Origin: Schmidtea polychroa
Lineage: Eukaryota
Assembly (NCBI GenBank): GCA_044892525.1
Contig: CM097885.1
Location: 26,786,001-26,850,000, forward strand
Length of the DNA stretch: 64,000 bases
Direction: 5' to 3'
Shown: positions 16,810 to 32,490 of the stretch, piece after piece
Numbering within the stretch: position 1 is the stretch's first letter
How the letters are laid out: every line of letters begins with the position of its first letter
The notes under the pieces: model-generated
Seen by the model: only the letters and a program-made list of their open reading frames with translations
Database searches by the model: none
What the model was told of the DNA's origin: nothing
Position numbers and translations under genes: made by a program

Positions 16810-17493
16810 AGTATATGGTTTGGGCACCGGGAAAACAGGACTCCGCGAGCACAGTACCCCCCCCCCCGGCAGGAACAATTTAAAAAAAAATTTTTTTTTT
16901 CAAGGTCAACTTGAGAACAAATACAATGAGTCATCCGATGACTCATCACTCGTCTAGAACAAAGACAATGACTCATCCGATGACTCATAATAAATTATTA
17001 TTATTTTTCAAAAATATTATTAACTGTGCTCGCGGAGTCCTACTTTTCGTGACCCCAAAACATAGTCTGAAACTTAATATATTTTAAAAATTTATAGTTC
17101 ATTTTGAAGCCCAGACGGAGATCTATCTTTTGAACCATAAAAATAATTTTTATCATTAATAATAAAAAAGTTATTAAGGTTTTGGTCAGAGTCATTTTAG
17201 TCATTTTAAGGTAAATTATTATTATTTTTCAAAAATATTATTAACTGTGCTCGCGGAGTCCTACTTTTCGTCAGCCCAAAACTTAGTCTAAATCTCAAAT
17301 TATTTTAACAATTTATAGTTCGTTTTGAAGCCCAGACGGAGATCTATCTTTTGAGCCATAGAAATAATTTTTATCATTAGTAGTATAAAAGTTATTAATT
17401 TTTTAGTCAGACACTAATTTATAGCAAATTTATAGCAAATTTTATGAAGAAATTTGCGGGTGATTTATCATTCACCCAATCAGGTAAGACTTA
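16810..17493. repeat. Left TIR of element C
   Basis: Reverse complement of ~31377-32490; carries two subterminal units with ACTGTGCTCGCGGAGTCCTACTTTTCGT. Confidence 0.92.
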
Positions 17494-17740
17494 AATTATT
17501 ATTATTATTATTATTATTATTATTATTATTATTATTATTATTATTATTATTATTATTATTATTATTATTATTATTATTATTATTATTATTATTATTATTG
17601 GGTATTGCTCGCAAGGGTACTGCCCCGAGTTTATCCGACAAAATATTTTCTCCCCCTATGGGTAATGCTTAAAAGGGTATTGCTCACGCTCAACAACTCA
17701 CAAGGGTATTATTAAACAAATCAACAAAACATACATTTAT

Positions 17741-18241
17741 TTAAACAAAAAAATAATGTAAAATTAACAAAGGTAAACCTAATATTGATGTACTACTATT
17801 CGCAGCATTATTGTTTGAAATTGGTAACGTTGAATTGATTTTCAGATATTCTATTGATCCTTTGATTGTTTGAATTTCTCTTAATAATAATTCAATCTTT
17901 TCTAACAAATAATCATGCTTCTTATCAATAATTTTCATATTCTTCTTATTTTCAACAATAGAGTTATTGAAAACTTCAATATGATCAATCAATTTAATTT
18001 TTATATTTTGTATATATGCAAATGATAGTTCATAACTGTTTTCTAAATTCTCCAATCTTTGAGATATTCTTTTTCCTGGATGCTTTGACCATTTTGGTTT
18101 ATCGAGGATATATAAAATATCCATCAACTTGGCTGTATTCGGACAAACACATATTGATTTATTAAAAGACTCCACTGTTATTGTTGTATTGTGTGAGCAC
18201 ACACTCGTTATAATAATTAGCAATATGAATATAGTTTTCAT
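17741..18241 (-). CDS. Predicted secreted/GPI-anchored coiled-coil glycoprotein (166 aa)
   Basis: N-terminal hydrophobic signal MKTIFILLIIITSVCS, CxC, heptad-like middle, five N-x-S/T sequons, small-residue spacer then hydrophobic C-terminus ILGLPLLILHYFFV. Confidence 0.75.
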   Translation of the reverse strand: MKTIFILLIIITSVCSHNTTITVESFNKSICVCPNTAKLMDILYILDKPKWSKHPGKRISQRLENLENSYELSFAYIQNIKIKLIDHIEVFNNSIVENKKNMKIIDKKHDYLLEKIELLLREIQTIKGSIEYLKINSTLPISNNNAANSSTSILGLPLLILHYFFV

Positions 18242-18346
18242 GGTGTATCAAATCAAAACCTTTCTTTTACATTTATAGTCTATCAACCAATCAAAATCAT
18301 ACGGTATTAGTATAAATAAAACATCATATTTTAAATTATTGTAGAA

Positions 18347-30600: not shown

Positions 30601-31048
30601 AAAGTAAAGGGCTTGGTTATAAGGAGTGGGTGTTCTTGCGCCCTAAGTGTTATAGTTTGTTAGGAGATAAGGCAACACTTAGGGCTAAGGGAGTTCAGCT
30701 TGGTAATACTGAGATAGGGCACCAGTCTTATTTAGACTGCTACAACAACAGCGTAGTATATACGGTGCCACAAACGAGAATAGGTACTAGAAACCATCAG
30801 CTCTTTACTTTCAAGAATAGGAAGATAGCCTTGTCGAACAACGATGACAAGAGACTATGGGTGGGGCCTAATACCAGTCTGGCATATGGACATTATTTAG
30901 GATTTGAGGAAACTGATGCTGGCCAGGTATTTACTCATGAAGAGATTGGACCGCTTTTTGGTGGAGAAAGCCCATCTTTCCATGATCAGGACAGTCCATA
31001 AATAATGATGATGTTACTGACATTGATGATGTCATTTTATCGGACTAA
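27678..31048 (+). pseudogene. polB: pPolB copy 2 (element C), disrupted
   Basis: Same motifs as copy 1; ~730-bp N-terminal deletion at ~27756, stop 28297-28299, ~160-bp deletion at ~28882, stop 30315-30317; retains DDKR. Confidence 0.95.
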
Positions 31049-31376
31049 TGTGATATATTAATATATCTTTTAAAAAAAAATATGTTTTTATTGATTTGTA
31101 TTCTTTTATAATGTATATATTTTATTGAAAACTCGTTATAGTTTTCACAATTCTTTCTATGTTTAAACATTATATTTTCATATAAAATTATCGAAAATGT
31201 TTCAGCATAGAAAGGATATTATTGGTAAAAATTTTTATTTTTGAAAACTTGTAATGTTTTCATTTTTATATAATTTGTAACAGAAAATAATTTGTAACAG
31301 TAGTTTGCAGTCAGCATGCAACTACATCTCTTACCTGATTGGGTGAATGATAAATCACCCGCAAATTTCTTCATAT

Positions 31377-32490
31377 AATTAAAGTCTTACCTGATTGGGT
31401 GAATGATAAATCACCCGCAAATTTCTTCATAAAATTTGCTATAAATTTGCTATAAATTAGTGTCTGACTAAAAAATTAATAACTTTTATACTACTAATGA
31501 TAAAAATTATTTCTATGGCTCAAAAGATTGATCTCCGTTTGGGCTTCAAAATGAACTATAAATTGTTAAAATAATTTGAGATTTAGACTAAGGTTTGGGC
31601 TGACGAAAAGTAGGACTCCGCGAGCACAGTTAATAATATTTTTGAAAAATAATAATAATTTTTTCATCAATCAGTGTCTGACTAAAAAATTAATAACTTT
31701 TATACTACTAATGATAAAAATTATTTCTATGGCTCAAAAGATTTGTCTTCGTCTGGGCTTCAAAATGAACTATAAATTGTTAAAATAATTTGAGATTTAG
31801 ACTAAGTTTTGGGCTGACGAAAAGTAGGACTCCGCGAGCACAGTTAATAATATTTTTGAAAAATAATAATAATTTTTTCATCAATCAGTGTCTGACTAAA
31901 AAATTAATAACTTTTATACTACTAATGATAAAAATTATTTCTATGGCTCAAAAGATTTGTCTTCGTCTGGGCTTCAAAATGAACTATAAATTGTTAAAAT
32001 AATTTGAGATTTAGACTAAGTTTTGGGCTGACGAAAAGTAGGACTCCGCGAGCACAGTTAATAATATTTTTGAAAAATAATAATAATTTACCTTAAAATG
32101 ACTAAAATGACTCTGACCAAAACCTTAATAACTTTTTTATTATTAATGATAAAAATTATTTTTATGGTTCAAAAGATAGATCTCCGTCTGGGCTTCAAAA
32201 TGAACTATAAATTTTTAAAATATTTTAAGTTTCAGACTATGTTTTGAGGTCACGAAAAGTAGGACTCCGCGAGCACAGTTAATAATATTTTTGAAAAATA
32301 ATAATAATTTATTATGAGTCATCGGATGAGTCATTGTCTTTGTTCTAGACGAGTGATGAGTCATCGGATGACTCATTGTCTTTGTTCTCAAGTTGACCTT
32401 GAAAAAAAATTTTTTTTAATTTTTCCTGCCGGGGGGGGGGGGGTACTGTGCTCGCGGAGTCCTGTTTTCCCGGTGCCCAAACCATCTACT
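31377..32490. repeat. Right TIR of element C with four subterminal units (214-bp period)
   Basis: ACGAAAAGTAGGACTCCGCGAGCACAGT at ~31603, 31817, 32031 and 32252. Confidence 0.92.

Follow-up and report, generated by a model that had tools for sequence, protein, structure and literature searches.

In this work we looked at a Polinton/Maverick element at positions 16810-32490 of a 64,000-nucleotide window of Schmidtea polychroa contig CM097885.1 (all positions are those of the window). Short GT-AG segments that interrupt its Bcl-2-like, integrase and protease genes and the leader of its polymerase gene are very likely inherited spliceosomal introns, one of which was seen spliced in a contig of a probable RNA run, and the element likely needs the host spliceosome. 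It is a Polinton/Maverick by every diagnostic feature that could be tested; its family is a high-copy one and the copy in the window is damaged. An earlier note on this DNA had named the short introns and an intron upstream of PolB, whose acceptor ends at 27677, and all of them were found in place, the short ones with GT..AG ends. The genes and introns concerned are the following (lengths in nucleotides, nt; pPolB, protein-primed polymerase):

18347..18861, plus strand: two-exon Bcl-2-like gene (exons 18347-18643 and 18688-18861)
18644..18687, plus strand: predicted phase-0 Bcl-2 intron, 44 nt; GT and AG in 27/27 aligning copies
21750..22815, plus strand: rve integrase with chromodomain, frameshifted near 22303 in the window copy
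22144..22188, plus strand: GT-(ATT)n-TTAG insert in the integrase core, a predicted phase-1 intron, 45 nt in the window
25435..25820, plus strand: adenain-like protease (Pfam Peptidase_C5 PF00770, E 2.1e-6, above cut-off)
25440..25477, plus strand: predicted phase-2 protease intron, 38 nt, GT..AG
26191..26896, plus strand: five acidic exons, probable 5' leader of pPolB, with four phase-1 introns and all exons open
26243..26285, plus strand: predicted leader intron 1, 43 nt; GT in 21/22 and AG in 21/22 close copies
26346..26387, plus strand: predicted leader intron 2, 42 nt; GT and AG in 23/23 close copies
26511..26554, plus strand: predicted leader intron 3, 44 nt; GT and AG in 29/29 close copies
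26627..26671, plus strand: leader intron 4, 45 nt, seen spliced; GT and AG in 30/30 close copies
26897..27677, plus strand: predicted 781-nt phase-1 intron from the leader to pPolB, with donor and acceptor in copies
27678..31001, plus strand: pPolB (Pfam DNA_pol_B_2 PF03175, E 7.3e-29), broken in the window copy

Copies of the element were compared in a set of 31 sequences, that is, the window and 30 copies fetched from 40 scored candidates (the scoring favours inserts of similar length); the leader counts refer to 30 close copies of the window-type leader. The family is large, as all 150 candidates scored for integrase exon 1 are 99% identical to it, which is a lower bound and not a copy number. 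The wider comparison covered sister families in the host genome (A, B, C, E and F) and metagenome loci (for the protease L065, L071, L072, L073 and L084), and no relative was found in the viral-contig collection. The earlier note had proposed that the GT and AG ends be compared across genomic copies, and they are conserved: beside the counts listed above, the integrase insert has GT in 30/31 and AG in 31/31 copies and the protease intron has both sites in place in 26/28. The segments show traits of U2-type introns, with GT...YAG ends kept across copies, a drifting length and a frame that is restored by their removal. Against an expectation of ~20% synonymous changes, the variants shared between copies were counted as 16 synonymous to 1 nonsynonymous and 11 to 8 in the two integrase exons, 26 to 6 in the protease, and 41 to 29 and 18 to 11 in the Bcl-2 exons; single-copy variants lean to replacements. 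Since the shared variants are mostly synonymous, the integrase, protease and Bcl-2 genes were kept working with the introns in place.

The first exon of the protease is only the ATG and two further bases (25435-25439), and the protein would need splicing because, without it, the reading frame ends after two codons; the next methionine comes only after the His motif, which we take to be catalytic. Across copies the intron is 36-40 nt long, mostly 37 nt, and the two copies in which the sites are not both in place have, in one case, an offset by a base with the donor kept and, in the other, a deletion. All four protease-bearing sister-family copies (A, B, E and F; 61-75% protein identity) show an ATG and two bases followed by GTAAGT, with the acceptor 37-39 nt further on. 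The same intron is present in four of the five metagenome loci (L065, L071, L072 and L073; 48-59% identity), being 47 nt in L071 and L073, which are near-identical to each other; the protease of the fifth, L084 (41% identity), is contiguous and has no intron. Two other intron options were rejected: a 35-nt one, whose acceptor is lost in 9/28 copies and absent in the sister families, and a 47/48-nt one, which leaves no open frame from the ATG.

The five acidic exons were described in the earlier note as a separate gene. Our comparison suggests that they are probably the 5' leader of pPolB, joined to it by the 781-nt intron, since the donor and acceptor match in phase. The acidic sequence is very variable among copies. 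An automatic parse of 26 diverged leader variants gave only phase-1 introns and open exons in 17/26; over all variants, 92 introns were called, at 37-53 nt. The last leader exon ends in a phase-1 donor that reads GTAAG in 15 copies and GTTAG in 6 and was not found in 5 of the 26, and a phase-1 acceptor lies upstream of PolB in 16/26 copies (not found in 10), with ~20 conserved codons before the first PolB methionine. Both sites are present in 15/26 copies, 536-3080 nt apart. Sister families A and B have leader introns and the same type of final junction into PolB, although in the copy of B the last leader exon contains a stop, and the metagenome locus L072, whose PolB is 50% identical, has three phase-1 leader introns (45, 53 and 49 nt) before a 1148-amino acid frame that starts at an acceptor. 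Joining the leader to PolB would complete a cysteine codon that precedes a conserved Cys/His motif.

Another explanation is that the acidic exons encode a protein of their own and that pPolB uses an internal methionine as its start. The last donor of the window-type variant is directly followed by a stop codon (6/21 donors), and the copies in which the acceptor motif was not found would fit this as well. Yet 15/21 donors are GTAAG and lack a fixed stop codon after them; wherever a copy has both donor and acceptor (15 copies), the two agree in phase; the ~20 codons that precede the first PolB methionine are conserved from family to family; and the long L072 frame begins at an acceptor behind its three phase-1 introns. 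We therefore regard a wholly separate gene as rather unlikely. As the window-type variant has a stop behind the donor, the acidic protein may also be produced on its own, and alternative splicing may yield both this protein and the leader-PolB product. Two further observations were made in this region. L013, L021, L049 and L053 have symmetric phase-1 leader exons that are duplicated along with the adjoining introns, and tandem repeats in variable number lie in the last exon. Inside the predicted long intron, positions 27107-27244 are a 138-nt duplicate of PolB sequence at 30293-30430.

Leader intron 4 is the intron that was seen spliced. The sequence evidence comes from the contigs of four runs of two studies (X1-X4), in which the RNA nature of the runs is a guess, none being recorded as RNA; 15 of the 19 joints of these contigs were shown. 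In a contig of X1, a run that may derive from a different individual than the assembly, position 26626 is joined to 26672-26689, the first 18 bases of the next exon, and then to 26723, at depth 17 and with 72 letters on the shorter side. Intron 4 (26627-26671) is thus cut out with exact borders, and the variant concerned has a shorter exon. The 13 genomic copies in which this shorter-exon variant occurs all contain intron 4 in full, and no genomic copy precisely without the intron was found among 61 places that match the exon start. Of these places 40 span the intron, and the 21 that were read comprise 18 with the whole intron and 3 with imprecise deletions or a truncation.

The integrase insert is of a different character. 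The gene itself is recognizable by rve PF00665 (E 2.1e-6, below cut-off in an interrupted piece) and Chromo (E 0.0013), and it has 880 homologues at E<=1e-30, with PF00665 in all 120 homologues listed. The insert ranges from 45 to 228 nt over the 31 copies and the window holds the shortest, so that the 45 nt given in the earlier note is the lower end of the family range and not typical of it. The site is contiguous in 116/116 homologues that reach it (4 of the 120 were not read), in 32/32 metagenome loci (5 of 37 fall short of the site) and in 8 sister-family copies, counts that have to be read with the fact that collections of proteins called as open reading frames (ORFs) under-represent split genes. 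A search for a genomic copy of the element's own family that lacks the insert found none. Eight identical bases stand on each side of the ATT tract, which fits an insertion that duplicated the AG|GT site, and by comparison of these sequences such an insertion may have created the insert. We regard the insert as a predicted intron that is found only in the family of the window element.

It could also be argued that the insert is a microsatellite and not an intron, which is either translated as a poly-isoleucine run or kills the enzyme, the family then being moved by the integrases of sister families. The insert is a multiple of three in 29/31 copies with an open read-through in most; in L110, L111, L113 and L114, which came from a search favouring short inserts, it is only 21-33 nt; sister families of the same genome carry an uninterrupted integrase; and no RNA junction is readable at the site, as the tract is skipped as a repeat. 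On the other hand, the GT and TTAG ends are fixed while the body ranges from 45 to 228 nt, the shared variants show purifying selection in both exons even though each of the 31 copies has the insert (recombination with other copies could blur this signal), and none of the 116 homologues has an insertion at this place, which lies beside an aspartate that is catalytic in DDE integrases. Taken together, the microsatellite explanation appears quite improbable and a predicted intron is preferred.

In the Bcl-2-like gene each exon gives weak matches: exon 1 to Pfam Bcl-2 (E 0.011) and to the BH1 of A1/Bfl-1 (E 0.27), and exon 2 to the BH2 of Bcl-xL (E 0.06). The intron is 40-45 nt long over the 27 aligning copies. 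The Bcl-2 gene of sister family A is contiguous at the intron site, and its BH1-BH2 tryptophan spacing is 38 residues versus 39 here after splicing (counted by hand). The search for Bcl-2 homologues gave a single unspliced ORF call only. Contig pieces from X1, a probable RNA run, stop at 18643 and start at 18688, the exact intron boundaries, with no joint listed between them, and a poly(A) loose end in run X4 lies behind the gene at 18876, following an AATAAA. A further GT..AG candidate (18304/18310-18344) lies ahead of the Bcl-2 start, where it overlaps a TATA-like element, and was not counted. Elsewhere in the genome, Bcl-2 domains lie within open frames of up to ~3,050 amino acids, which are probably giant retrotransposons, and seven near-identical Bcl-2 genes form a cluster on C4 of the same genome. 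Frames of ~3,000 amino acids with Bcl-2 domains recall the Burro retrotransposons of Dugesiidae, as far as these are presented in the cited part of PMC6431247.

The possibility that the segments are insertions into single dead copies after integration, or chance GT..AG pairs, is very improbable and largely refuted: the window copy is dead, the DNA is ~70% AT and secondary insertion is described in the cited part of PMC11957031 as the main route in dinoflagellate elements with introners, but the same sites are present in all copies, those of the protease and PolB also in other families and metagenome relatives, one junction was seen spliced, and the plus strand of 17620-31000 holds 10 strict AT-rich GT..YAG segments of 36-52 nt, more than in any of 200 local shuffles (mean 0.69, maximum 4; a rough control, as the segment filter was chosen after the segments had been seen).

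Several observations weigh against inherited spliceosomal introns that are removed by the host. Of the 15 joints shown, just one coincides with a predicted intron, in a single contig of a single run with a guessed RNA label, and among the X1-X4 contigs no joint is shown for the Bcl-2 and protease introns or for leader introns 1-3 (the integrase tract is skipped as a repeat and the PolB acceptor lies outside the stretch). The protease intron is present unspliced in contigs of X1 (summed depth ~770), X2 and X3, and one piece of X4 begins 10 nt into the Bcl-2 intron. Of the spliced joints that the earlier note had proposed to look for, one was seen, at leader intron 4; no joint is shown for the other introns, and that of the protease is found retained. 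The cover of X1 roughly tracks that of X8, a DNA-sized run; DNA or unspliced transcripts of many dead copies are therefore probably mixed into X1 and may explain the retained protease intron. The in-frame length of the integrase insert and its short forms in four loci count on the same side, as do the 9/26 leader parses that were unclean owing to frameshifts, a lost start or missed and mis-picked sites, the window's own parse among them.

The last of these points regards size. At 37-39 nt, the protease intron falls below the lengths of the four host introns that were measured, which are 45, 52 and 52 nt in a KANSL2-like gene (one of them GC-AG) and 49 nt in an SLC7-like gene. These values are close to the 43-49 nt given in the earlier note but not the same. 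In S. mediterranea, intron lengths peak at 45-85 base pairs (bp) according to the cited part of PMC13594981. The earlier description of the element's introns as host-sized holds for the Bcl-2 and leader introns; it does not hold for the protease intron, for the integrase microsatellite of 45-228 nt or for the PolB intron of 0.5-3 kb.

From the distribution of the introns some order of events can be suggested. The protease intron and the PolB leader appear to be old in the clade, and the integrase and Bcl-2 introns may have been gained in the family of the window element, since homologues or sister families are contiguous at both sites. In the nucleus, the element genes would be transcribed by host RNA polymerase II, and the AT-rich introns of 37-50 nt would be removed by the host's ordinary short-intron route. 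Like the protease, a full-length PolB, with its five acidic phase-1 exons joined by the long intron, and an integrase whose core is unbroken would depend on this step. A broader reading is that one clade of animal Polintons, in the host genome and in the metagenome contigs, shifted as a whole to spliced core genes, with splicing as a gate that times replication and capsid maturation and ties the element to hosts that splice 37-50-nt introns. In such a gate the protease would start on a five-base exon behind the capsid stop, an arrangement kept down to 48% protein identity, and a repeat-expanding leader would complete the metal-binding motif of PolB. We hold this broader reading to be rather doubtful; a regulatory use of intron retention is possible.

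Splicing is familiar in other nuclear DNA viruses. Adenoviruses are related double-jelly-roll nuclear DNA viruses that splice, and the start codons of their polymerase and terminal protein lie on a small upstream exon. They differ from the element in having no integrase or target duplication and in using long multi-gene transcription units and not 40-50-nt AT-rich introns. Spliceosomal introns in nuclear DNA viruses are reported for mirusviruses as well, which belong to another viral realm, with giant genomes and unicellular hosts; the text of PMC12768974 does not mention Polintons or Mavericks. In protist Polinton-like viruses (PLVs), group I introns are known. Dinoflagellate maverick-polinton-like elements share with the present case spliceosomal-type introns in full-length Polinton-like elements, but in the cited part of PMC11957031 these are mobile introner copies, mostly inserted after integration, whereas here each intron has one fixed site across copies and families.

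Closer relatives are the animal Polintons or adintoviruses, which according to the cited parts of PMC8097293 and PMC8502044 have the same terminal inverted repeats, 6-bp target duplication, pPolB, rve integrase, ATPase, adenain-like protease and capsid-type genes, and also carry Bcl2 homologues as accessory genes. The difference is that they are intronless in what PMC8097293 describes, where no introns were seen among the genes that intact elements carry, in line with Kapitonov and Jurka 2006, and that split core genes are inherited across families here. The earlier statement that Polinton core genes are usually annotated as single ORFs agrees with these papers, which call them intronless. Planarian Polintons are de-repressed in animals with PIWI knocked down, according to PMC8532177. 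Nematode Mavericks, in the cited part of bioRxiv 10.1101/2022.07.12.499685, have intron-bearing genes between the left repeat and the integrase, comparable to the Bcl-2 gene here, but their core genes are intronless, unlike the split protease, integrase and PolB of the present element. Our literature search, which reached titles and abstracts, with most subscription journals and Repbase outside its reach, found no report of inherited spliceosomal introns in animal Polinton core genes. In the present element three core genes depart from the intronless state described so far.

This matters for the way in which such elements are surveyed. Because they are said to lack introns, Polinton surveys call genes as plain ORFs (in the cited parts of PMC10120064 and PMC9356565), and in that of PMC8097293 intactness is scored only if the ORFs are intronless. 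Spliced families would then be filed as broken, and the starts of their polymerase and protease would be mis-called. The earlier note had gone further and held the real gene content to be invisible to ORF annotation. This is right for the protease start, the C-terminal half of Bcl-2 and the PolB leader, all of which are missed; most of the gene content is visible nonetheless, since other copies carry the ATPase gene and each of the two capsid-type genes as one ORF. The family further offers dated examples, at high copy number, of introns gained in an animal genome, namely those of integrase and Bcl-2, for which the intronless sister families represent the ancestral state, and of symmetric phase-1 exons that are duplicated. 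The range of hosts in which the element works could be limited by its very short introns.

The limits of the element, given in the earlier note as 16810-32490 with AGTA...TACT ends and TTTCTA flanks, were found as described, and its remaining structural and core features are:

16804..16809, no strand: left target-site duplication, 6 bp, TTTCTA, identical to 32491-32496
16810..17499, plus strand: left terminal inverted repeat with internal ~220-bp units, recognized by its inverted arms and terminal-base match
20522..21148, plus strand: A32/FtsK-type packaging ATPase, single ORF (Pfam Pox_A32 PF04665, E 1.5e-6, above cut-off)
21161..21694, plus strand: conserved basic ORF, presumably at the position of Polinton PZ
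22766..23820, plus strand: probable minor capsid gene by position and size, with frameshifts near 23056 and 23783 in the window copy
23817..24191, plus strand: conserved small ORF, presumably at the position of Polinton PW
24188..25407, plus strand: probable major capsid gene, broken near 24882 in the window copy
31375..32490, minus strand: right terminal inverted repeat, four ~214-221-bp units
32491..32496, no strand: right target-site duplication, TTTCTA

The AGTA at 16810 and the TACT at 32490 provide the AG...CT ends of Polintons. The inverted arms are 95% identical between 16859-17433 and 31869-32443 and 98% between 17213-17499 and 31375-31661, and the terminal bases match at 50/51 positions. 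With the 6-bp target duplication, terminal inverted repeats, pPolB, rve integrase, ATPase and adenain-like protease, every diagnostic Polinton/Maverick feature that could be tested is present; the described but not diagnostic trait of intronless core genes does not hold here. The capsid genes are probable ones, placed by position. In other copies the minor-capsid candidate is a single ORF of 342-355 amino acids, with no Pfam match, and the major-capsid candidate a single ORF of 406-407 amino acids, with no sequence match in Pfam or PDB. The sole direct lead is the Atlas neighbours of the latter at 0.97-0.98, where the double-jelly-roll-like (DJR-like) family PF21738 is found in 15% of one cluster's members, with a recognition value below threshold. 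The window copy is dead: its integrase and its two capsid-type genes are frameshifted, PolB has stops and gaps, and ~650 bp are absent at 20397/20406. Among L001-L060 the block of ATPase, integrase, capsid and protease is ~90-98% identical and the PolB block 64-99%, a contrast between blocks that suggests module swapping.

Between the left repeat and the ATPase, the minus strand carries four further genes or remnants:

17741..18241, minus strand: single-exon gene of 166 amino acids with hydrophobic ends and no family (sub-threshold coiled-coil matches only in Pfam)
18939..19309, minus strand: two-exon acidic gene, missed by the earlier note, with a predicted intron at 19253-19293
19443..19853, minus strand: single-exon gene of 136 amino acids, no Pfam family, common to sister families
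20172..20406, minus strand: 3' remnant of a gene; ~650 bp with a TBP-like ORF in other copies are absent at 20397/20406

The intron of the acidic gene has a GT donor in 24/24 other aligning copies and is mostly 41 nt long; the window copy has no GT. A poly(A) loose end of run X4 lies at 19416, behind a minus-strand gene, and follows an AATAAA; those at 21192 and 22713 were set aside as likely internal priming because genomic A runs follow them. The TBP-like ORF of other copies has 145 amino acids (L001:4036-4470, minus strand; Pfam TBP E 2.8e-13) and is present too in sister families and in metagenome loci L064, L072, L078 and L084. The gene behind it (L003:3622-3963, minus strand; sister families B, C and F) has an apparent intron of its own of 46-48 nt, with an in-frame read-through in L003. 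Short intron candidates of 43 and 40 nt are also seen in accessory genes of the metagenome relatives, at L072:1745-1787 and L078:830-869.

The surroundings of the element hold more Polinton-like remains, at 8687-12990, 38600-40100, 42700-43540 and 60091-63604 of the window. Among them are a second PolB, which is 81-90% identical and shares the acceptor motif (near 8730), additional pieces of PolB, and an element of another type that bears an ATPase. The region is flanked by two inverted copies (95-98%) of a broken element resembling a DNA transposon, at 1237-4439 and 36001-37813. Of the host genes, a deoxyhypusine hydroxylase gene at 51356-52279 on the minus strand is intronless, and the predicted 52-nt GC-AG intron of the KANSL2-like gene is located at 54153-54204. 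Directly behind the latter gene there is an array of 24-nt tandem repeats (54400-55700).

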